Part shown: piece after piece, positions 33,629 to 61,646 of the stretch
How the letters are laid out: every line of letters begins with the position of its first letter
How positions within the stretch are numbered: the stretch's first letter is position 1
Assembly: GCA_021604705.1 (NCBI GenBank)
Contig: BQJM01000006.1
Coordinates: forward strand, 2,087 to 66,086
DNA: 64,000 nucleotides
Source: a marine bacterium B5-7
GTDB taxonomy: Bacteria > Pseudomonadota > Gammaproteobacteria > BQJM01
Reading direction: 5' to 3'
Notes under the pieces: generated by a model
What the model was told of the DNA's origin: nothing
Databases searched by the model: none
Seen by the model: the letters and a program-made list of their open reading frames with translations, nothing else
Made by a program: the position numbers and the translations under genes

Positions 33629-34825
33629 TTACTCACAAATTTCAACTACACTCCCCAATTCCTGCCACGGAATCACCATAATATTATCCGCGAGTTTTGC
33701 GCGCATGGGGGCGCGGCAAACAATGTAACCCATTGTCGAATTGTCGTATTCACTTAAGAACGTTAACAAATGTTTTGCGTCAGCCAATGACGGGTATGGC
33801 GTCCATTTCACTTCAATGGGGATGTATTGTCCCGCCAAAGAAACAACCCAGTCTACTTCTGGTCCTGTATGGTCATGCCAAAAATTTAATGCATTCGGGC
33901 CAGGTTGAAAACGCAGCATATGCAGTAACTCTAAACCTACCCATTGCTCGAACAAATGGCCCATGTATTTTTCTGGGTATGTTGCGGGTTCTTTTGCCGC
34001 AACGCGACGTACACCCATGTCAAATAAAAGATATTTGGGTGATTTTGTTAAACGCTTTCGTGATAGTGATTTGCTTAGTGGTTCAATGCGATGTGCGATC
34101 AAACAATCTTCCAGTATTTCATAGTAGTTTTGAACCGTTTTTCTCGTGACGCCAATATCTTGCGAGACTTTACTAATATTTAAGATGTGTCCAGATTCAA
34201 TGGCTGCTAGCATTAAAAAGCGGTTGAATGTTCCTAGTTCACGGACTAAGGCTTCAGCTTTGATTTCTTCTTCTAGGTAGATGCCAACATAAGCTTCTAG
34301 TAATCTGTTTTTATAGGCATGGTCTGTTTCCAAATAGACGGCAGGTAGTGAGCCATGGAACAAGAGATCTTCAATGGTGTTAGGCAGTGCCGAGCATTCA
34401 CTTAACATGAGTGGATCGCAGTGTAGGGGGATCACGCGCCCAGGCAATAAATTAATGGTCTTGCCTCGTTTCAATTTTCTGGCGGAGGATCCACTTAAAA
34501 TAAACTGTGCTATGTTTCGATCAATGAGATCTTGTACGGCATCCATGATGAAAGGAATTTTCTGGACTTCATCGATGATGACGAGTGGTTTTTTTCTATC
34601 TGTGGTTTGTAGCGCTTCGACTTGTGTTGCAAGTAAATCTAATCGCTGCTCGTAGGCTAAACGTTTCTCAGGACGAGCAAAGGATATCGAGAGAGAGACA
34701 GGGAGCTGCGCCATCATGGTAGTTTTACCAGTCTGACGCGAGCCAAGTAGCAAAATACTTTTGTCTTTCGCTAGGTGTTTCGTGATCTCGGCTTCTAGTT
34801 GTCGGTGAACATACATGCTGTGCAA
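33629..34825 (-). CDS. AAA+ ATPase with PD-(D/E)xK-like C-terminus, paralogue D
   Basis: GSRQTGKTT, IIDEVQK, SGSSARKL, PEVDWVVSLAGQYIPIEVK. 34825 is a TTG; the first ATG is at 34816. Confidence 0.85.
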   Translation of the reverse strand: MHSMYVHRQLEAEITKHLAKDKSILLLGSRQTGKTTMMAQLPVSLSISFARPEKRLAYEQRLDLLATQVEALQTTDRKKPLVIIDEVQKIPFIMDAVQDLIDRNIAQFILSGSSARKLKRGKTINLLPGRVIPLHCDPLMLSECSALPNTIEDLLFHGSLPAVYLETDHAYKNRLLEAYVGIYLEEEIKAEALVRELGTFNRFLMLAAIESGHILNISKVSQDIGVTRKTVQNYYEILEDCLIAHRIEPLSKSLSRKRLTKSPKYLLFDMGVRRVAAKEPATYPEKYMGHLFEQWVGLELLHMLRFQPGPNALNFWHDHTGPEVDWVVSLAGQYIPIEVKWTPYPSLADAKHLLTFLSEYDNSTMGYIVCRAPMRAKLADNIMVIPWQELGSVVEICE

Positions 34826-43257: not shown

Positions 43258-44775
43258 CTACCCCAGCAAACTCACCCCCGTCATCTCGTTTGGTTGGGTG
43301 AGATCCATCACGTGAAGTAGCGTGGGTGCTATATCGCAGAGTGTGCCTTGTGCAGTGAATGGCGTGGGTTTTCCCACGTAAACAAATGGTACTAAGCAGT
43401 TAGTGTGCGCGGTATGCGCTTGCGCATGGTCGGCGTTATACATGAGTTCGGCATTACCGTGATCGGCGGTAATAAACCAATGGGCTTGGTTTTCTAATAC
43501 GGCTTGATGAATTTCTCCTAAGCACGCATCAATGGCTTCAATTGCTTTGACCGTTGCATCAAAATCACCGGTATGTCCCACCATATCGGCATTCGCGAAA
43601 TTACAGATGACGAGCGCATGTTCATCTGAATGAATCGCATCAATCACATGTTGTGCGACAGCTGCCACATGCATTTCTGGCTGTAAGTCATAGGTAGCGA
43701 CATCAGGAGAGTTCACGAGGATACGTTTTTCAAGGGGAAAAGGAGCTTCTACACCACCGTTAAAAAAGAAAGTGACATGCGCGTATTTTTCAGTTTCAGC
43801 CGTATGTAGTTGCGATAAACCTTGCTTGCTAACAACTTCCGCTAATGTGTTACTAATTTTCTCTGGTGGATAGGCAACGGTGCAGGGTAAATCATGCGCG
43901 TATTCGGTTAGCGTGACAAAGTGATGATAATCAATCACGCGTTCGCGCGGAAAACCATGAAATGCTGGCAGGGTGAATGCCTGCGTGAGTTGCCGTGCCC
44001 GATCCGCGCGGAAGTTCATCATGACGATCACATCATCATCTTGTATGGCTTGATGATTACCGATAAGCGTGGCCTGCACAAATTCATCGGTTTCTCCGCG
44101 TGCGTACGCAGCTTCTAAAGCAGATTCAGCTGTGTCCGCCTGAAAAGATGCTTTCCTCAGTGTGAGTGCATCGTAACAAGTTTGCGTACGATCCCATCGG
44201 GTATCGCGATCCATGGCGTAGTAACGTCCACAAATTGACGCGACATCTCCAACACCGATGCGTTTAAAACAGTGGCCTATTTTTTTTAAACTAGCTGCAG
44301 CACTCTTCGGAGCGGTGTCACGTCCATCTAAAAACAGATGGAGTGCCAGTTGCTTTACGCCGCATTGTTCGGCTAATTCGCATGCTGCCACGATGTGATC
44401 TTCATGGCTATGCACACCACCAGGCGATAACAGCCCCATGATATGTACGGTGCGCTTGTTGGCAGCAGCATACTGAAACGCATTAGTAAAAGCGGTGTTT
44501 TGTTGAAAGCTACTATCATCAATGGCTTGTGTAATGCGTGATAAGGCTTGACGCACTAAACGCCCGGCGCCCATGTTTAAGTGCCCGACCTCGGAATTTC
44601 CCATTTGTTGATCGGGTAAGCCTACGGCATGCCCCGAGGCATCGAGCAAGGTATGTGGATAATCGCGCCACAATTTATCCCAGTTGGGGGTGTGTGCTTG
44701 GGCAATGGCGTTGTGCTCGCGTGCTTCGCGATGTCCCCAGCCATCTAGAATCAGTAATACCGTTGTGTTGTGCAT
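43258..44775 (-). CDS. gpmI: 2,3-bisphosphoglycerate-independent phosphoglycerate mutase
   Basis: GNSEVGHLN (phospho-Ser), ADHGN; 505 aa. Confidence 0.92.
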   Translation of the reverse strand: MHNTTVLLILDGWGHREAREHNAIAQAHTPNWDKLWRDYPHTLLDASGHAVGLPDQQMGNSEVGHLNMGAGRLVRQALSRITQAIDDSSFQQNTAFTNAFQYAAANKRTVHIMGLLSPGGVHSHEDHIVAACELAEQCGVKQLALHLFLDGRDTAPKSAAASLKKIGHCFKRIGVGDVASICGRYYAMDRDTRWDRTQTCYDALTLRKASFQADTAESALEAAYARGETDEFVQATLIGNHQAIQDDDVIVMMNFRADRARQLTQAFTLPAFHGFPRERVIDYHHFVTLTEYAHDLPCTVAYPPEKISNTLAEVVSKQGLSQLHTAETEKYAHVTFFFNGGVEAPFPLEKRILVNSPDVATYDLQPEMHVAAVAQHVIDAIHSDEHALVICNFANADMVGHTGDFDATVKAIEAIDACLGEIHQAVLENQAHWFITADHGNAELMYNADHAQAHTAHTNCLVPFVYVGKPTPFTAQGTLCDIAPTLLHVMDLTQPNEMTGVSLLG

Positions 44776-44809
44776 AGTAGCCTAAAGAGATGTCAAATAA
44801 AGTGTTTAT

Positions 44810-44866
44810 TGATCAGAAGGGATCACTATATCAGGATAATCTTCCCTCGCAAGGCAGATTAGCTAG
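44810..44866. repeat. Left copy of the 57-bp direct repeat flanking ATPase paralogue E
   Basis: tgatcagaagggatcactatatcaggataatcttccctcgcaaggcagattagctag. The 43-bp core differs at 2 positions from 46491-46533. Confidence 0.85.
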
Positions 44867-44932
44867 CTGATCTGTCCTGGCAGGGAAAATTAGATGGGTT
44901 TGTTTCAGGAAATCTGATGAAGAAAGTCTGGA

Positions 44933-45016
44933 TGAGCCATTTATAAAAACCTATAAGTGGCTCAAATGACTTGATTAACTTAATTGAGCCACTTATACTT
45001 CATTATAAGTGGCTCA
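44933..45016. promoter_or_regulatory. Two 32-bp palindromes 5' of ATPase paralogue E
   Basis: tgagccatttata-aaaacc-tataagtggctca (44933-44964) and tgagccacttata-cttcat-tataagtggctca (44985-45016). The second ends 14 nt before ATG 45031. Confidence 0.75.
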
Positions 45017-45030
45017 CAATAGGTTTTCAT

Positions 45031-46464
45031 ATGATTGGTCGACAGTTCGAAAGGACGCGATTAAAAAAGCTCTTTGATTCCACAGAAGCGGAATTTATGG
45101 TTGTCTATGGACGACGTCGCGTGGGTAAGACTTTTTTAATTCAATCTTACTTTACAGAGGAGCAAGACTGTGTGTTTATGCAGGCAACAGGCTTGCAAAA
45201 AGGGTCGCTTAAACAACAGCTCCAGCTTTTTACTGATGCACTTGCAAAGACCTTTTTCAGAGGTGCAATGATTACGCCACCGAAGGATTGGGGATCTGCA
45301 TTTAAATTGTTAACTCAGCAACTTGAAATGACAACACAGACCGTTGTTATATTTTTGGATGAATTTCCCTGGATGGTGACACCACGCGCTGGATTGCTTG
45401 AAATGCTGGACCACTATTGGAATCAATATTGGAGTCGTCTAAAGCATATTAGGCTTGTGATTTGTGGTTCTAGTGCTTCATGGTTAATTAAAAAAATTAT
45501 TGAAAATAAAGGGGGGTTACATAATCGCGTGACTTCTCAACTTCATTTGAAACCATTTACGCTTTCTGAGACAGCTGCGTTTTTAAAACATCGAAAGATT
45601 AAATTAAATGCCTCTCATTGCTTATCGTTATATCTAGCGCTAGGCGGCGTGCCATACTATTTAAAGTATGTTGAACCTGGATTAACTGCAGAACAGAATA
45701 TTCAGAGAATTTTGTTTGATCAAGATGCGCCGTTACATCATGAGTTTGAGAAACTTTTTTATTCGCTATTTAAACATGCAGATGCCTATATTGAGTTAAT
45801 TAAAGTTATCGGCATGCGAAAGGAAGGGTTAGACCGTGTAAGCCTCCAGAAACACACAAAAATCTCGAATGGTGGTCGACTTTCTGAACGTTTAAAAGAT
45901 TTAGTGCTGACTGGCTTTATCCAAACGTATAGTCAATTAGGAAAAACGCAAAATATCTACTACAAGCTCATTGATGAGTTTAGTCTTTTTTATTTTCAGT
46001 GGGTGATGCCACACAGAAATCAATTATTTGTTGGTGAGCATTGGTTGAGTCAACATCAAAAACCAGCTTATGCAAGTTGGGCTGGCTATGCTTTTGAAGC
46101 GGTGTGTATGCAACATATCGATCAAGTGGTGAAGGCATTGGGGATACACGGTGGTGGCGTAATTAGTTCATGGCGTTATATACCCAAAACGTCGAAAGAG
46201 TGTGGGGCTCAAATTGATTTGCTGATCGAGAGGAATGATAATGCAATCACTTTATGTGAAATTAAATACACACGAGAACCTTTTGTGATTGATAAAAATT
46301 ATGCGCTCATTTTACAGCGGAAAATTGATCTATTTAACGAAAAAACCAAAAACAAAAAACAAGTTTTTCTTGCATTGATCTCTGCTCACGGCGTGAAAAA
46401 AAATAAATATAGTGAGTTGTTAATCGATCAGGTTGTGACGCTTGAACATTTGTTTATCGGGTAA
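45031..46464 (+). CDS. AAA+ ATPase (DUF234/archaeal-ATPase-like) with PD-(D/E)xK-like C-terminus, paralogue E
   Basis: GRRRVGKTFL Walker A, IFLDEFPW Walker B, C-terminal AQIDLLIERNDNAITLCEIK. The ORF-track start at 44971 is a TTG inside the palindrome region. Confidence 0.75.
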   Translation: MIGRQFERTRLKKLFDSTEAEFMVVYGRRRVGKTFLIQSYFTEEQDCVFMQATGLQKGSLKQQLQLFTDALAKTFFRGAMITPPKDWGSAFKLLTQQLEMTTQTVVIFLDEFPWMVTPRAGLLEMLDHYWNQYWSRLKHIRLVICGSSASWLIKKIIENKGGLHNRVTSQLHLKPFTLSETAAFLKHRKIKLNASHCLSLYLALGGVPYYLKYVEPGLTAEQNIQRILFDQDAPLHHEFEKLFYSLFKHADAYIELIKVIGMRKEGLDRVSLQKHTKISNGGRLSERLKDLVLTGFIQTYSQLGKTQNIYYKLIDEFSLFYFQWVMPHRNQLFVGEHWLSQHQKPAYASWAGYAFEAVCMQHIDQVVKALGIHGGGVISSWRYIPKTSKECGAQIDLLIERNDNAITLCEIKYTREPFVIDKNYALILQRKIDLFNEKTKNKKQVFLALISAHGVKKNKYSELLIDQVVTLEHLFIG

Positions 46465-46476
46465 AGCTATCGCAAG

Positions 46477-46533
46477 TGATCAAGAGAGAGCACTATATCA
46501 GGATAATCTGCCCTCGCAAGGTAGATTAGCTAG
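46477..46533. repeat. Right copy of the 57-bp direct repeat; the hairpin plus T-run may also terminate paralogue E
   Basis: tgatcaagagagagcactatatcaggataatctgccctcgcaaggtagattagctag, followed by gttttttt. Confidence 0.85.
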
Positions 46534-46558
46534 GTTTTTTTGTATCAATTTAACGGCA

Positions 46559-46586
46559 TTGCCGTTCAGCCAACAACCCGTATAAT
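46559..46586 (+). promoter_or_regulatory. Candidate sigma-70 promoter of the yibN-like-grxC-secB-gpsA block
   Basis: TTGCCG - 16 nt - TATAAT, about 29 nt upstream of ATG 46615, which has an aaggag SD. Confidence 0.4.
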
Positions 46587-46614
46587 GCCCTCATCTTTTA
46601 AGGAGCGTAAACAT

Positions 46615-47043
46615 ATGCAAGATTTTTCGATTTTTGTGGCACAGAACCTTTGGTTGTGCCTGTTATTTGGCGTTTTATTGGCGGCGGTCGTTGTGACGGA
46701 ACTGCGTCGTTCGGCTAAAGGTGGTCAGCAAATTAGCCCGCAGGCGGCTGTGATGATGATGAACCGTGGCAATCCACAACTCATTGATATTCGTGATTCG
46801 GCCCGCTTTAACCAGGGGCATATCGCAGGGGCGAGGCAAATTGATGCAAAGACAGATAAAATTGATTGGGCCCAAGTGTTGCCGGAAAAAGACCAAAAGT
46901 TATTACTCATCTGCGAAAGAGGCCAATCAGTGCTCAAAGTAGCCGACCAGTTACAAAAGTTAGGTTATACTAACGCGAATATCTTGGCGGGCGGGATGAC
47001 TGCTTGGCGAGATGCTAATTTACCGATTACGAAAGGAGCTTAA
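46615..47043 (+). CDS. Membrane-anchored rhodanese-domain protein (YibN-like)
   Basis: N-terminal TM helix, rhodanese loop ICERGQS. It occupies the position upstream of grxC-secB-gpsA, as yibN does in E. coli. Confidence 0.72.
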   Translation: MQDFSIFVAQNLWLCLLFGVLLAAVVVTELRRSAKGGQQISPQAAVMMMNRGNPQLIDIRDSARFNQGHIAGARQIDAKTDKIDWAQVLPEKDQKLLLICERGQSVLKVADQLQKLGYTNANILAGGMTAWRDANLPITKGA

Positions 47044-47045
47044 GC

Positions 47046-47297
47046 ATGGCGAAAGTCATTGTCTATTCCAAGCCCAGCTGTCCGTACTGTGTGCGCGCAG
47101 AGCAACTGCTGCAACACAAAGGTGTGGCATTTGAGAAGGTTCGTGTGGATTTAGATGCTGAGGCATTAAAATTCATGATGGAAAAAAGTGGGCGTCGTAC
47201 CGTGCCTCAAATTTTTATCAACGATGAACCCATTGGCGGATTTGATGATTTGTATGCGCTGGATAAAAGCGGTAAATTAGACGGATTATTAACTTAA
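47046..47297 (+). CDS. grxC: Glutaredoxin 3
   Basis: CPYC active site, TVPQIFI, GGFDD; 83 aa. Confidence 0.88.
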   Translation: MAKVIVYSKPSCPYCVRAEQLLQHKGVAFEKVRVDLDAEALKFMMEKSGRRTVPQIFINDEPIGGFDDLYALDKSGKLDGLLT

Positions 47298-47318
47298 CTA
47301 AACTCAATAAAGGGGAGC

Positions 47319-47771
47319 ATGACCATGGCCGATACACAACCTGAATTTGCGATTCAGCGTTTATACATTAAAGACAGTTCATTTGAGGCACCGAATGCCC
47401 CAGCGATTTTCCGTGAAAAATGGGAACCTGAAGTGAATTTGGATCTCAATAATCATCACGAAAAAATTACTGACGGCGTGTATGAAGTCACACTGAAAGG
47501 TACCGTGTCTGTGAAATCTAGTGACACAATGGCATTTGTTGCTGAAGTCACTTATGCCGGTGTGTTCACAGTGAAAAACTTTGAAAAAGAACAGTTCGAC
47601 CAAGTGATTCATAGCTTCTGTCCAAACGTTTTATTCCCGTACATGCGTGAAACAGTGACGGATATGGTTAACCGTGGTAGCTTCCCGCAATTAGTCTTAG
47701 CACCGGTTAATTTCGATGCCTTGTACCAACAACAATTGGCACAAGCGAAAGACGGCGAGAAAACTTCTTAA
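47319..47771 (+). CDS. secB: Protein-export chaperone SecB
   Basis: FAIQRLYIKDSSFEAPNAP, NVLFPYMRE; 150 aa. Confidence 0.88.
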   Translation: MTMADTQPEFAIQRLYIKDSSFEAPNAPAIFREKWEPEVNLDLNNHHEKITDGVYEVTLKGTVSVKSSDTMAFVAEVTYAGVFTVKNFEKEQFDQVIHSFCPNVLFPYMRETVTDMVNRGSFPQLVLAPVNFDALYQQQLAQAKDGEKTS

Positions 47772-47853: not shown

Positions 47854-48876
47854 ATGAGTATTTCGAAGAAAGTTTCCCATAGATTATTGTCGCCAATTGC
47901 AGTATTGGGTGCCGGCTCATGGGGCACCGCGTTAAGCCTGGCTTTGGCCAGGCATCAACAAGATGTTGTGCTGTGGGATGTGAACAGTGAGCTGGTCACA
48001 TCCATGCAGCAATCACGCGAAAATACGCGCTATCTGCCCGGGATCCCTTTGCCAGATAATATTCACTGTTGCGACTCCTTAGCAGAAACGCTTAAACAAT
48101 CGCGCGATGTATTAATTGTCGTACCGAGTCATGCATTTCGTCGCGTTCTACAAAACATTAAACCGCATTTAGCTGCCGATGCGCGTGTCATTAGCGCGAC
48201 CAAAGGCTTAGATGCAGAAACCGGTCAACCTTTATCTGCTGTATTTCGTGAAGAAATGGGCGATAGAGCTTATGCTGTATTATCCGGCCCATCGTTTGCG
48301 AAAGAAGTTGCGGCGAATATGCCAACCGCTGTGACCATTGCCAGCGAAGATACTGACTGGTTAGCAACGGTTGCGGCGAGTTTCCACCAACAAACTTTTC
48401 ACGTATATACATCGCAAGATGTGCTTGGTGTGAGTTTGGGGGGGGCTGTTAAAAATGTGATAGCAATTGCTGTTGGGATGGCGGATGGTTTGGGTTTTGG
48501 CACCAATACAAAAACAGCATTGATCACCCGTGGTTTAGCAGAAATGATGCGCCTGGGTGAAGCGCTTGGTGCACAACGCGAAACATTTACCGGTTTATCC
48601 GGCGTGGGTGATTTGGTGTTAACTTGCAGTGATAATCAATCGCGTAATCGTCGTTTTGGGTTGGCGATTGGTCAAGGCCAAGCGGTACAAGCGGCGGAAG
48701 AAGCCATTGGCCAAGTGGTCGAAGGCAAACGCAATGCCCAAGAAGTAGTAACACTAGCAAGGCAGCATGATGTGAATATGCCGATTGCAGAACAAGTCTT
48801 CCGTGTCCTCTACGAAAACGCCCCCATTGCGACGGCGGTCAATGCCCTACTCGCCCGCGATTTGCAGGGAGAGTAG
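47854..48876 (+). CDS. gpsA: NAD(P)H-dependent glycerol-3-phosphate dehydrogenase
   Basis: GAGSWGTAL Rossmann motif, GAVKNVIAIAVG. Confidence 0.92.
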   Translation: MSISKKVSHRLLSPIAVLGAGSWGTALSLALARHQQDVVLWDVNSELVTSMQQSRENTRYLPGIPLPDNIHCCDSLAETLKQSRDVLIVVPSHAFRRVLQNIKPHLAADARVISATKGLDAETGQPLSAVFREEMGDRAYAVLSGPSFAKEVAANMPTAVTIASEDTDWLATVAASFHQQTFHVYTSQDVLGVSLGGAVKNVIAIAVGMADGLGFGTNTKTALITRGLAEMMRLGEALGAQRETFTGLSGVGDLVLTCSDNQSRNRRFGLAIGQGQAVQAAEEAIGQVVEGKRNAQEVVTLARQHDVNMPIAEQVFRVLYENAPIATAVNALLARDLQGE

Positions 48877-50112
48877 TTTATGGGGGCGGGGTGGTTCTTG
48901 TCTTGTTTGTGAGAGGGGTGCTTGCGCGGGCACTGCTGAAATACTCAGAACCGGGCTAAAAAATGTTGCCTCCGGCATATCCGGCGCTATTTCTGTGATT
49001 AATTTCAATAGACGATTAGATGCTGCTGCTTGTTGCTGAGCGTTGGTGAGTGGGTATGCAGCAAATGGTACCAGGTCGCTTTCGGGCGCCTGTGTTGATG
49101 GTGGCGTTGTCTCAACATAGGCCTTTTCAAGGTATCTTAAATCTTCTTTGATAAAGCTGATAGGATATGTGCTTCTTATGAATGCCTCTACTTCATCAGG
49201 TGTATTACAGTGTTTCCCGACCCACGTCATGATTGTTGCTTTATGTCCTTCATTATGACCTAACAAAAGCGCGCTTAACGTTGGTATTGTGTTGATATGC
49301 ATGAGCAATTCTTTTGTAATGTTGGTTATGCTGATATCTGTTTGACCGTTTAGTAAAAAATGTAGTTTTAACGGTGTATCTGGACTCGCGCTTGCCTTGC
49401 CGCTTAGTTCTTTGAGGGTTTTATCAAAGATAGAGATAAATGTTGTTGGTACTAGGGCAATCAGTAAACCCAGTGCACCATGATAATTGACCTTCAGCTT
49501 AGATATCTTACCTGTCGTCCTGATACAGCGTTGTTTTAATTTCTTCTCAAATATTGAAAAGGCTGTGTATACATGGCTAAGATCGGATACCTTCTTCGCT
49601 AGCGCTGTCGCAACCTCATGAGGAATGCTCCCTTTAGCACATGAGCTGCGAATGTCTTCCAACGCCTGAGTGACCTCTTGATGGCAGGTGCGAAGACTAT
49701 GCCAGCCACGGGTGTGCCCAATATCTTTTGAGTCGATGCGGCTGCTGAAGCATGCCACGATCTTTGCCATCTGCTCGAGTAGCTGGGCATCGCCATTGGA
49801 TTTGTTAAATGCGGTTAACCAGCGCGAGTGTGTGTTACCGAGTGCAAGCTTGATGGTGTGGCGATCTGTGCTTCCTGCATCGAAAAATTGTAATAAGGGA
49901 TTTTTAGGGGGCGTGTAAGTGGATGTAGCTTCGTTATAGCGTTTCGCTAATGTTAGTTGTTCGCGGATGAGTTTATTAAGTCTATGTAAGGGATTGCCTA
50001 GGATCGTACTTTGAGAACGCCATAGCTGTACCATGGTAATATGCAGCAAAGGTTGTACCAAATTTTGCTCAAAGGTGCGCCCGAGGCGGGTACTGGTGTC
50101 TAATAAGGTCAC
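48847..50112 (-). CDS. Orphan hypothetical protein (421 aa)
   Basis: Long ORF with GTG start 8 nt after gcaggag. No motif recognised. Its 3' end overlaps the gpsA 3' end by 30 nt. Confidence 0.45.
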   Translation of the reverse strand: MTLLDTSTRLGRTFEQNLVQPLLHITMVQLWRSQSTILGNPLHRLNKLIREQLTLAKRYNEATSTYTPPKNPLLQFFDAGSTDRHTIKLALGNTHSRWLTAFNKSNGDAQLLEQMAKIVACFSSRIDSKDIGHTRGWHSLRTCHQEVTQALEDIRSSCAKGSIPHEVATALAKKVSDLSHVYTAFSIFEKKLKQRCIRTTGKISKLKVNYHGALGLLIALVPTTFISIFDKTLKELSGKASASPDTPLKLHFLLNGQTDISITNITKELLMHINTIPTLSALLLGHNEGHKATIMTWVGKHCNTPDEVEAFIRSTYPISFIKEDLRYLEKAYVETTPPSTQAPESDLVPFAAYPLTNAQQQAAASNRLLKLITEIAPDMPEATFFSPVLSISAVPAQAPLSQTRQEPPRPHKLLSLQIAGE

Positions 50113-60382: not shown

Positions 60383-60478
60383 CAAATTACCATGCACTTT
60401 GGTCCTGGCAGGGACAAATTACATTGCATTTTGTCCCTGCCAGGGCCAAAATGTAAAATATATTCAAGCGTAAACAGG
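60383..60478 (+). promoter_or_regulatory. Three phased 32-bp repeats directly 5' of ATPase paralogue F
   Basis: caaattaccatgcactttggtcctggcaggga / caaattacattgcattttgtccctgccagggc / caaaatgtaaaatatattcaagcgtaaacagg. Units 1 and 2 match at 25/32; cctggcagggacaaa and tttgtccctgccagg form a 15-bp inverted repeat. Confidence 0.75.
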
Positions 60479-60485
60479 TTATCCC

Positions 60486-61646
60486 ATGTCATCTCCCAGT
60501 GAATTTCAACGATCGTTAAATATACCGCTGGATGTTAATCAGAGCTTCTTCCTCTTTGGTCCTCGTGGTACAGGCAAAACGAGCTGGTTAAAAGCCAATG
60601 TAAAAAATGCCATTTATTTTGATTTGTTAAAAGCAAAATGGCGTAATCTTTTTTTAGCTGATCCGGGCCGGCTTGAGGAAAATATACCAGAGAATTTTGA
60701 TGGATGGGTGATTATTGATGAAGTGCAAAAAGCACCTGAACTCTTAAACGAAGTGCATCGTTTAATTGAAGAAAAACGTTACCGATTTATTTTGACAGGA
60801 TCCTCTGCTAGAAAGTTACGTCAGGAGGGCGTGAACTTATTAGCGGGTCGTGCGTACATCTACAACATGCACCCACTCACAGCAGAAGAAATGGGAGATG
60901 CGTTCCAGCTTGATAAATATCTCTTACATGGCGGTATTCCAGCTATTTATAATACAGAACTAAGTGCTGAAGAATTTCTAGCAAACTATATTGAAACCTA
61001 TCTTGAACAAGAAGTATTGCAAGAAGGATTGATTCGGCAACTAGAACCCTTTGCTCGTTTCTTAGAGAGCGCGTCTTTTTCTCAGGGAAGTACTTTAAAT
61101 ATGACAGCGGTTGCACGAGACTGTGCGGTGAGTCGAAAAATTGTCACCGGGTATTTTGATATTCTAAAAGACTTGTTGATAGGCTATAAATTGCAGCCAT
61201 TTACACGTCGTGCTCAGCGGCGTTTAACAATGAATCCCAAGTTTTATTATTTTGATGTAGGCGTTTTTCGCTATTTACGTCCTCAGGGACCATTAGACAG
61301 TACGAAAGAGTTAGATGGTCCTGCTTTAGAAACCCTTTTCTTACAAAATTTGCGGGCGATTAATGACTATCATCATTTAGGTTACTCGCTTTATTATTGG
61401 CGAACGAGTACGGGAACAGAAGTTGATTTCGTTTTGTATGGTGAACGTGGTTTTTATGCATTTGAAATAAAGCGGAGTGCGAAGATTACAAAATCGGATC
61501 TAAGTGGTTTAGGTGCTTTTCTGAAAGATTATCCTGAGGCAAAGGGATACTTGTTATACGGCGGTACGCATCGCGAGTACCATGGCAATATCACTGTACT
61601 TCCTTTCATTGAAGTTATTCAAACATTACGCGATTTCATTGGTTAA
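60486..61646 (+). CDS. AAA+ ATPase with PD-(D/E)xK-like C-terminus, paralogue F
   Basis: GPRGTGKTS, IIDEVQK, TGSSARKL, TEVDFVLYGERGFYAFEIK. Confidence 0.85.
   Translation: MSSPSEFQRSLNIPLDVNQSFFLFGPRGTGKTSWLKANVKNAIYFDLLKAKWRNLFLADPGRLEENIPENFDGWVIIDEVQKAPELLNEVHRLIEEKRYRFILTGSSARKLRQEGVNLLAGRAYIYNMHPLTAEEMGDAFQLDKYLLHGGIPAIYNTELSAEEFLANYIETYLEQEVLQEGLIRQLEPFARFLESASFSQGSTLNMTAVARDCAVSRKIVTGYFDILKDLLIGYKLQPFTRRAQRRLTMNPKFYYFDVGVFRYLRPQGPLDSTKELDGPALETLFLQNLRAINDYHHLGYSLYYWRTSTGTEVDFVLYGERGFYAFEIKRSAKITKSDLSGLGAFLKDYPEAKGYLLYGGTHREYHGNITVLPFIEVIQTLRDFIG

Follow-up and report, generated by a model that had tools for sequence, protein, structure and literature searches.

A foreign ATPase-nuclease cassette between 57-bp direct repeats in the gpmI-yibN spacer resembles an insertion with long target duplication

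The footprint analysed here is the same as one known from restriction-modification genes, where it is described as insertion with long target duplication (Nobusato et al. 2000; Furuta, Abe & Kobayashi 2010, PMC2853133). The direct repeats around those genes are long and variable, from >30 bp up to about 400 bp, and are unique in their genomes (PMC2853133). Furuta et al. 2010 recognised such events by a repeat of >30 bp that was unique in the genome and an insert of <20 kb without mobile-element genes, together with a single uninterrupted target copy in a related genome and a cargo comprising restriction and modification genes. The locus described below lies in a window of 64,000 nt (the whole stretch of DNA that was analysed) and has a 57-bp repeat present in two copies only, with a 1610-bp insert holding one ORF. 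[quoted passage not shown] The two agree in type of event but not in class of cargo, which here is a single gene for an ATPase with a PD-(D/E)xK domain (PDC-S27, candidate defence) rather than a restriction-modification system. A further difference is that the source genome applies the footprint to non-nuclease cargo as well. Distant relatives show the uninterrupted gene pair, while an empty site was shown only for another family member (L133, compared with G402).

Integrases act at tRNA genes and gene 3' ends, and the islets bounded by attL and attR share with this locus the direct repeats of target sequence around foreign DNA, the possibility of repeat-mediated excision, and the stacking of different cargoes in tandem at one site (the queA end). 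They differ in that no integrase was found here in cis, nor genome-wide above the cut-off, the repeats vary widely in length, many of them greatly exceeding an att core, and the target is a non-conserved promoter region. Integron cassettes are likewise single-ORF units of similar size with a hairpin-forming repeat just past the ORF; however, the 57-mer has neither the R''/L''-L'/R' architecture nor the GTTRRRY core, there is no IntI or attI, the cassette has its own 164-nt promoter region, and the repeat duplicates local spacer sequence. An attC-like structure was rejected on sequence features, the 57-mer containing no GTT. Transposons and insertion sequences did not fit either, as terminal inverted repeats were not found (comparison of the insert ends scored 14 against a shuffle mean of 15), there was no transposase, and repeat length in the family varied from 23 to 390 bp. 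Campbell-type integration of circular DNA and homology-facilitated illegitimate recombination are familiar from natural transformation and from suicide plasmids, and require no more than the recombination machinery of the host and a homologous stretch on the DNA that enters; the direct repeats equal that stretch in length, and their copies may differ if the donor was of another lineage. Here, by contrast with those settings, we infer such a route from the variability of repeat length, the independence from cargo, and the synonymous-biased divergence of the repeats.

The features of the locus were as follows.

43258-44775, reverse strand: gpmI (2,3-bisphosphoglycerate-independent phosphoglycerate mutase; Pfam Metalloenzyme and iPGM_N), left neighbour
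44810-44866, no strand assigned: left copy of the 57-bp direct repeat, adjoining gpmI, 51/57 identical to the right copy
44825-44852, reverse strand: sigma-70-like gpmI promoter within the left repeat, TTGCGA, 16 nt, TG-n-TATAGT, predicted by consensus scan only
44867-46476, forward strand: single-gene cassette of 1610 bp (164-nt upstream region, gene, 12 nt downstream)
44933-45016, no strand assigned: two 32-bp palindromes (44933-44964 and 44985-45016) with arms TGAGCCACTTATA / TATAAGTGGCTCA
44971-44999, forward strand: sigma-70-type ATPase promoter, TTGATT-17-TATACT, predicted by consensus scan only
45031-46464, forward strand: ATPase-nuclease gene, 477 aa, PF01637 ATPase_2 and DUF234 PF03008 (PD-(D/E)xK domain)
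46477-46533, no strand assigned: right copy of the 57-bp direct repeat, starting 12 nt past the ATPase stop codon
46492-46519, reverse strand: promoter copy in the right repeat (consensus scan), antisense toward the ATPase 3' end
46504-46541, forward strand: right-repeat hairpin and T7, 9 pairs including one G.U, 7-nt loop, terminator-like scan match
46559-46586, forward strand: predicted yibN promoter, TTGCCG-16-TATAAT (consensus scan), outside the repeat and intact after insertion
46615-47043, forward strand: yibN-like rhodanese gene (Pfam), right neighbour, followed by grxC, secB and gpsA

The insert is compositionally foreign, with a GC content of 38.1% against 49.0% for gpmI and 46.6% for yibN-gpsA. 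Its length falls just under that of the smallest of 14 other repeat-flanked inserts of the family (1622-1912 bp). The encoded protein matched the PADLOC PDC-S27 HMM with E=4e-168 over residues 1-475 of 477, and both its N and C termini aligned with homologues. The Walker A (GRRRVGKT), Walker B (LDEF) and nuclease (IDLLI...CEIKY) motifs are present, so that the gene reads as a full-length member of PDC-S27 with intact motifs. The protein is a candidate anti-phage protein by this assignment, PDC-S27 being a phage-defence candidate whose anti-phage activity is without validation in the literature (PMC12988326). The earlier note had reported no integrase or transposase; this was confirmed from the ORFs and Pfam for 44867-46476, where the ATPase-nuclease gene is the one ORF.

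The duplication of 57 bp, also claimed from the letters alone, was substantiated, as were its identity of 51/57 and the 41/43 identity of its 43-bp core. Local alignment of the copies scored 84, far above the shuffles (n=200, mean 20, maximum 32). Mismatches were located at positions 7, 8, 11, 14, 34 and 46 (a divergence of 10.5%), and the longest stretch without a mismatch was 19 bp. A pattern search allowing ≤3 mismatches returned two copies in the window with 0 expected, and BLAST of the 1.72-Mb genome (E≤10) returned the same two only. The 43-mer was therefore not the generic dispersed terminator repeat that the earlier note had named as a possible refutation, and a dispersed repeat, REP or terminator family was ruled out, with no Rfam family matched by the 57-mer. 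The core was also compared with viral contigs as a candidate phage att site, and no match was obtained. A second similarity pair of 28 nt (44602-44629 and 46447-46474) raised a longer duplication extending into gpmI, and this was ruled out as 46447-46474 encodes the native, conserved C terminus of the ATPase. A Logan assembly made independently from the source run reproduced 43800-47600 with zero differences, and its contigs showed a single form of the locus, with no joints of an excised form or empty site.

The claim of an insertion into a conserved divergent pair was supported by the synteny, by the absence of the ATPase from it elsewhere, by the low GC and by the unique duplication. Of 68 distant metagenome loci that were informative, 60 had yibN and gpmI as divergent neighbours, and the ATPase gene was absent from between them in all 60. 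The spacer measured 114-771 nt in 59 of these; here it is 1839 nt, or 172 nt, which is a normal length, once the insert and one repeat copy are subtracted. The sole long spacer among the distant loci (L077) held an unrelated membrane-protein gene, and flanking repeats were absent; none of the 60 showed an arrangement comparable to the repeat-flanked insert. A relative with the ATPase gene in this position but no duplication, which the earlier note would have counted against itself, was not encountered among the loci searched. These comparisons are distant ones: the collections searched contained no close relative of the source genome and no other member of its family, all of its GTDB relatives fall in other families, the best metagenome relatives of gpmI were 58% identical, and the yibN protein had no exact match in any database record.

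The regulatory signals were assigned by consensus scan and from comparison of related cassettes. The palindrome arms are unique in the genome, and related cassettes have two palindromes at the same positions, about -100 and -45 from the start. The predicted ATPase promoter overlaps the second palindrome, and the pair probably acts as operator for the promoter that the cassette carries. The -10 element of the predicted gpmI promoter ends 49 nt upstream of the gpmI ATG. Promoter hexamers are retained in both 57-mer copies, and the copy in the right repeat may be either a relic or an antisense promoter. The hairpin that had been noted within the repeat (TAATCTKCC-CTCGCAA-GGYAGATTA) was found in both copies, with a U.C mismatch in the left where the right pairs G.U; T7 (46535-46541) lies 6 nt past the hairpin of the right copy. 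This hairpin and T-run are likely the terminator of the ATPase gene; the stability of the fold was not above that of shuffled sequence. An 18-nt "shared box" (44875-44892) was considered as a cassette-end motif and rejected, since it occurs only here and upstream of the ORF at 60486-61646.

The footprint was found to recur in the ATPase family, which has >7700 homologues. Repeat-flanked single-gene inserts made up about 20% of about 140 homologues from several phyla. Flanking direct repeats were present for 12 of 72 homologues across phyla versus 2 of about 80 non-family ORFs at the same loci (Fisher p=0.004), and, in a sample of Gammaproteobacteria, for 13 of 68. In 15 cases examined, inserts were 1610-1912 bp and repeats 23-390 bp with identities of 75-100%, at ≥12 unrelated targets that include the non-conserved promoter region described here. 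Of the repeat pairs in both samples, 14 of 25 were host or unclassified non-coding sequence and 11 of 25 were copies of the cassette's own palindromes; a palindrome copy past the stop codon is found in many Firmicutes and Bacteroidota members. The host-derived repeats comprised the queA 3' end twice (contig C1 of the source genome and the Firmicute L133), tRNAs, dapB-like and msrB-like gene ends, and the promoter and 5' end of an RND pump. Within the source genome, four of nine ATPase paralogues were repeat-flanked. Only the paralogue studied here (paralogue E) and the copy on C1 had repeats within 800 nt; C5 and C46, where the inserts are larger, came from a genome-wide scan.

Mobility of the unit was evident from related cassettes in unrelated contexts (74-98% DNA identity), in which the shared DNA starts about -85 to -165 nt from the gene and ends about +0 to +150 past it; one copy retains about 40 nt of its former host's neighbour gene. 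At L133 the queA end is duplicated as a perfect 35-bp repeat, and in a related species (G402) queA is followed directly by the same right flank, an empty site. With this and the recurrence in the family, the earlier reading of the locus as an insertion footprint was upheld. A same-genus comparison for L192 (G343) lacked the ATPase after dapB but was not clean, because the right flank was not conserved. The footprint was shown to be independent of cargo. At the same queA site, G405 has an MFS-transporter gene between roughly 70-bp repeats, and in the source genome unique repeat pairs also surround AAA_14+DUF4143, Fic, RhuM and kinase genes, while a tandem array of three queA-end copies separates two different cargoes. 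Cargoes without a nuclease but with the same footprint comprised MFS transporter, kinase, Fic, RhuM and Ank/F-box genes.

Taken with these data, the 57-mer is probably sequence of the gpmI-yibN spacer that is now twofold because a foreign 1.6-kb cassette was inserted with long target duplication, one copy having been imported and joined by host homologous recombination. The incoming DNA would already have carried a copy of the spacer segment, most simply as a circularised cassette or else as a fragment from a related donor. Host homologous or homology-facilitated recombination would then have integrated it with no element-encoded integrase or transposase, leaving the resident copy and the imported one as direct repeats, which could afterwards mediate excision or amplification. 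Gene gpmI would retain the adjoining promoter copy and yibN its own promoter, and the hairpin and T-run of the right copy would serve as the cassette terminator.

The proposed import was examined by a codon test of intact versus truncated repeat copies, restricted to repeats covering coding sequence. Differences were biased to third codon positions (pooled counts 36/17/74), and 64 synonymous versus 46 non-synonymous codon changes were counted (p=0.004 against in-situ decay). At L206, 7 of 7 codon changes were synonymous, and L241 had 21 synonymous and 9 non-synonymous changes. Such divergence places the history of the truncated copy inside a working gene, and therefore in another genome, which suggests that a donor copy of the target often arrived on the incoming DNA and hence that integration was homology-driven. 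The repeats of L209, L192 and queA on C1 had no synonymous bias and resemble plain decay, so the route may vary between loci. The test is inapplicable to the 57-mer because it is non-coding, and old decay in situ could account equally well for its 10.5% divergence.

The earlier note had allowed site-specific or homology-driven recombination, and it is the latter that fits better than a dedicated site-specific recombinase, because of the variable repeat length (23-390 bp), targets and cargoes, the lack of a tyrosine recombinase above the Pfam cut-off, and the synonymous bias. A true attL/attR pair would require that a recombinase encoded elsewhere, or lost, had integrated a circular cassette with an attP resembling the spacer, and this is unlikely. 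Family members are located at tRNA genes (L154, L156 and L217) and, in two phyla, at the 3' end of queA, but the repeats otherwise range over unrelated targets such as the present promoter region, and none of the 15 inserts examined had a recombinase in or beside it. The tandem queA array and the different cargo of G405 would also suit an att site, as would the single resolvase gene of the genome, although this is on an unrelated small contig (C65) and no tyrosine recombinase was found in the genome above the Pfam cut-off (best PF00589 match, 25.4 bits). The longest identical run of the 57-mer copies, 19 bp, speaks against att sites, and the synonymous-biased divergence of long repeats suits homologous exchange better.

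It is decidedly unlikely that the cassette inserted itself, the ATPase-nuclease making staggered cuts, perhaps at its own palindromes, and fill-in repair duplicating the target in situ. Such a hypothesis has been stated in PMC2853133, with breakage of DNA as the proposed factor that restriction-modification systems have in common. It would suit the intact PD-(D/E)xK and Walker motifs, the cassette-specific palindromes at the ends of the mobile unit, and the several perfect repeats (L133, L154, L189 and L210), but the same footprint surrounds cargoes without a nuclease, and an in-situ duplication leaves the synonymous-biased divergence of truncated copies unexplained. We give little credence to the bolder proposal that the protein is a mobility enzyme which recognises the cassette palindromes and breaks DNA for excision and long-duplication insertion; if it were, PDC-S27 would be a new class of single-gene transposable element now filed as defence candidates. 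Very improbable, finally, is a duplication unrelated to the insertion, whether a pre-existing duplicate of the 57-mer with a chance insertion or a second copy gained later. "Chance insertion between repeated sequences" is a class in Furuta et al. (PMC2853133), and the promoter hexamers are kept in both copies; yet the insert occupies exactly the interval between them, and nothing comparable was seen in the 60 distant spacers. The same geometry, moreover, was seen at about 25 independent loci of the family, whose repeat sequences are unrelated, and flanking repeats are rare around other genes.

That restriction-modification genes can enter genomes by insertion with long target duplication, with no mobility gene of any kind, was recognised in 2000; to our knowledge, the mechanism has never been settled. 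The present analysis extends the phenomenon to a very abundant and uncharacterised ATPase-nuclease family (PDC-S27), and in one 1.7-Mb genome about a dozen single-gene islets, or more, appear to have arrived by the same route. Natural examples whose repeats vary now number in the dozens and can be compared. Their synonymous-biased divergence suggests that the second repeat copy was imported with the cassette, in which case these cassettes would be recombinase-free hitch-hikers, with a piece of the previous host as the attachment site. For annotation, when a gene recurs as a compact mobile unit in "defence islands", part of its score as a defence candidate may come from that mobility.

The gene examined here, E, lies between gpmI and a yibN-like rhodanese gene and is bracketed by two direct copies of a 57-bp sequence (the 57-mer). 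The features of the locus are as follows.
43258-44775, minus strand: gpmI, the left neighbour
44810-44866: left copy of the 57-mer
44933-45016: two 32-bp palindromes
45031-46464, plus strand: E, a PDC-S27 ATPase-nuclease gene and the sole gene in the 1610 bp between the repeats
46477-46533: right copy of the 57-mer
46559-46586: predicted yibN promoter, outside the repeat (consensus scan)
Right neighbours: the yibN-like rhodanese gene, grxC, secB and gpsA

The two copies were identical at 51 of 57 positions and at 41 of 43 within a 43-bp core, which confirmed the positions and identities in the earlier note. Local alignment of the flanks scored 84, whereas 200 shuffles averaged 20 and never exceeded 32. 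A third copy was found neither in the window (degenerate search, ≤3 mismatches) nor in the genome (BLAST, E≤10; 1.72 Mb in 65 contigs). Since the score was far above the shuffles and no further copies were found, the repeat was deduced to be real and non-random. A dispersed element was ruled out by the presence of just two copies, and the generic terminator repeat that the earlier note had raised against its own reading was not supported. In an independently produced assembly of the source run, 43800-47600 was identical, and no alternative form of the locus was present.

The interpretation of the locus as an insertion was supported by distant loci recovered via gpmI. A rhodanese gene lay divergently upstream of gpmI in 60 of the 68 informative loci; for 59 of them the start-to-start spacer measured 114-771 nt, and the ATPase gene was absent from all 60 spacers. 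The proposal that the ATPase gene sits between conserved divergent neighbours was thereby borne out. The spacer at locus E is 1839 nt and would shrink to 172 nt if the insert and a single repeat copy were taken out. The GC content is 38.1% for the insert, 49.0% for gpmI, 46.6% for yibN-gpsA and 44.4% for the genome. Locus E is very probably an insertion with target duplication.

The E product carries Pfam ATPase_2 and DUF234 domains and matched the PADLOC candidate defence family PDC-S27 over its full length (E=4e-168). DUF234 is listed as a PD-(D/E)xK family (PMC3424549), and for PDC-S27 a fusion of an ATPase with a PD-(D/E)xK domain and a putative antiviral role has been described (PMC12988326). 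The Walker A (GRRRVGKT), Walker B (LDEF) and PD-(D/E)xK (IDLLI...CEIKY) motifs are intact. As both termini of the protein align with homologues, the gene is deduced to be complete, with the right repeat starting 12 nt past the native stop codon. The predicted promoter of E overlaps the second upstream palindrome. The box TCCTGGCAGGGA(C)AAAT occurs in the genome only at 44875-44892 and 60403-60421; upstream of 60486-61646 it is one palindrome arm, and at E it is a half-site only, located 8 nt in from the insert's left end. The three genes previously taken for paralogues of E (120-1541, 33629-34825 and 60486-61646) proved to encode AAA_14 ATPases of another family, the latter two with an additional DUF4143 domain, and E is the only PDC-S27 gene in the window. 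A 421-aa ORF convergent with gpsA (48847-50112) had no Pfam match.

The hairpin previously noticed in the repeat was present in both copies (9-bp arms, 7-nt loop). The T-run after the right copy was likewise confirmed: T7 begins six bases past the hairpin there, and the consensus scan classed the site as terminator-like. Fold stability was not above that of shuffled sequence. Both core substitutions (44843 and 44855 in the left copy, 46510 and 46522 in the right) affect both bases of a single hairpin pair, T.C on the left and G.T on the right, giving in plus-strand RNA a U.C mismatch and a G.U pair, respectively. This difference would fit the right copy as the one serving as terminator. On the minus strand, both copies contain TTGCGA, 16 nt and TG-n-TATAGT (consensus scan). 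The left-copy site ends 49 nt upstream of the gpmI start codon, making it the evident candidate for the promoter of gpmI. With this predicted promoter inside the 57-mer and that of yibN outside, the duplicated segment looks like native spacer sequence. Judged from these signals, both neighbours appear to keep their predicted elements after insertion, and the right copy appears to give a predicted hairpin and T-run to a cassette with just 12 nt of 3' sequence of its own.

Several known kinds of element were considered for locus E. An integron cassette was rejected because the 57-mer has no attC-like core, an IS or transposon because the insert has no terminal inverted repeats, and a REP element because the 57-mer occurs in two copies only. 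The 57-mer had no match in Rfam. An integrase island was rejected since the insert contains no recombinase gene, in line with the earlier note, its sole gene being the ATPase-nuclease, and since no tyrosine recombinase scored above the Pfam cut-off genome-wide (best 25.4 bits, C2:47229-47768). Canonical XerC/XerD was not detected in B5-7 by the Pfam search, which scored in 14 of 14 control genomes; one resolvase gene was found, on a small unrelated contig. The closest precedent is the "insertion with long target duplication" described for restriction-modification systems by Furuta et al. 2010 (PMC2853133), in which small defence units without mobility genes are flanked by long, variable, genome-unique target repeats, often gene ends or tRNAs. 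Locus E shares these structural features but carries cargo other than a restriction-modification system, and an empty site was seen for a homologous locus (L133) rather than for E.

The same arrangement recurs in the PDC-S27 family, which comprises >7700 proteins at E≤1e-30 (best identity 60%) and for which nothing on mobility was found in the searchable literature. Strong upstream/downstream direct repeats flanked 12 of 72 homologous genes from many phyla, compared with 2 of ~80 non-family ORFs of the same loci (Fisher p=0.004), and 13 of 68 family genes in a gammaproteobacterial sample. In both samples together, 14 of 25 repeat pairs were host (or unclassified non-coding) sequence and 11 were copies of the cassette's own palindromes. 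All 15 closely examined cases had 1610-1912 bp between repeats of 23-390 bp (75-100% identity) and one gene each, with 109-432 nt upstream and ≤170 nt downstream; at L156 the repeat overlaps the gene end. Host sequences serving as the repeat included the following.
L133: last 35 nt of queA, in perfect copies
L217: a whole tRNA-Met
L154 and L156: parts of other tRNAs
L192, L209 and L196: 3' ends of dapB-like, msrB-like and other genes
L206: an RND-pump gene's promoter plus its first 46 codons

The family characteristically carries locus-specific palindromes upstream of the gene (L097-L108, L143, L145, L150, L172, L176, L210 and E), one roughly 100 nt and one roughly 45 nt before the start, often with TTATAA-type motifs. 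Many Firmicutes and Bacteroidota members have a further copy just past the stop codon, which implies a mobile unit bounded by palindromes, and DNA homology between related cassettes starts and stops at them. In unrelated contexts, related cassettes share DNA across the cassette only (L162 and L164 versus L134, 97.8% over 1652-1691 bp; L155 versus L160, 96% over 1740 bp); the clade of E itself shows homology between about -110 and the gene end. The L134 copy retains ~40 nt from the 3' end of the gene adjoining the cassette in the L164-type context. In the related species G402, the right-flank sequence and gene of L133 come immediately after queA, with a gap of 281 nt versus 1931 nt in L133; this is an empty site for L133, with a single target copy.

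Within B5-7, a PDC-S27 paralogue only 30% identical to E is part of a tandem array at the 3' end of queA (C1:69152-73625: queA, Ank-repeat gene, F-box-like gene, 36-bp queA-end fragment, PDC-S27 gene, 64-bp queA-end fragment). The queA end is a site shared with L133, a distant Firmicute family member, and with genome G405, where an MFS-transporter gene lies between ~70-bp repeats. A genome-wide scan revealed two further paralogues with flanking repeats, one on C5 (323 bp, 97%) and one on C46 (80 bp), as well as ~20 unique direct-repeat pairs 0.7-6 kb apart, many enclosing one or two genes (for example C10:7846-9669, C13:20387-22362, C20:21096-22946, C42:7525-9867, C7:2612-3862 and C5:57960-61533). 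Cargoes included AAA_14+DUF4143 ATPases, Fic, RhuM, a eukaryote-like protein kinase and PDC-S27. From these and the G405 transporter, the footprint was concluded to be independent of cargo.

In each coding repeat pair, one copy is part of an intact gene and its partner is a truncated fragment. A fragment that arose and decayed in place should differ evenly over codon positions. When nine coding cases were pooled, the differences at first, second and third codon positions numbered 36/17/74; of the codon changes, 64 were synonymous and 46 non-synonymous (p=0.004 relative to in-situ decay with constraint allowed on the intact copy). All seven changes at L206 were synonymous, as were 21 at L241 (9 non-synonymous); no such bias was seen between copies at L209, L192 or the C1 queA repeat, and the route may differ between cases. 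The bias implies that in several cases the fragment diverged within a working gene of a different genome and was brought in together with the cassette. Incoming DNA carrying a target copy could then integrate by Campbell-type or homology-facilitated recombination, which would account for variable repeat lengths and recurrent conserved targets (queA end, tRNAs). Of the two routes offered in the earlier note, the homology-driven one is favoured by the variable repeats, cargo-independence and synonymous bias, and a dedicated recombinase is less favoured, no tyrosine recombinase having passed the Pfam cut-off. For the non-coding repeat of locus E, such a route is a tentative extrapolation from the coding cases, with a chance somewhat short of even.

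Repeat-flanked single-gene islets seem to be the usual route of gene gain in the B5-7 genome, whose Ank, F-box-like and kinase proteins suggest life inside eukaryotic cells. Locus E belongs to a known kind of insertion, for which Furuta et al. proposed DNA breakage together with a virus-like cycle in which units are inserted, amplified and released (PMC2853133). The old question of its mechanism becomes more approachable through the recurrence across the family and the codon data.
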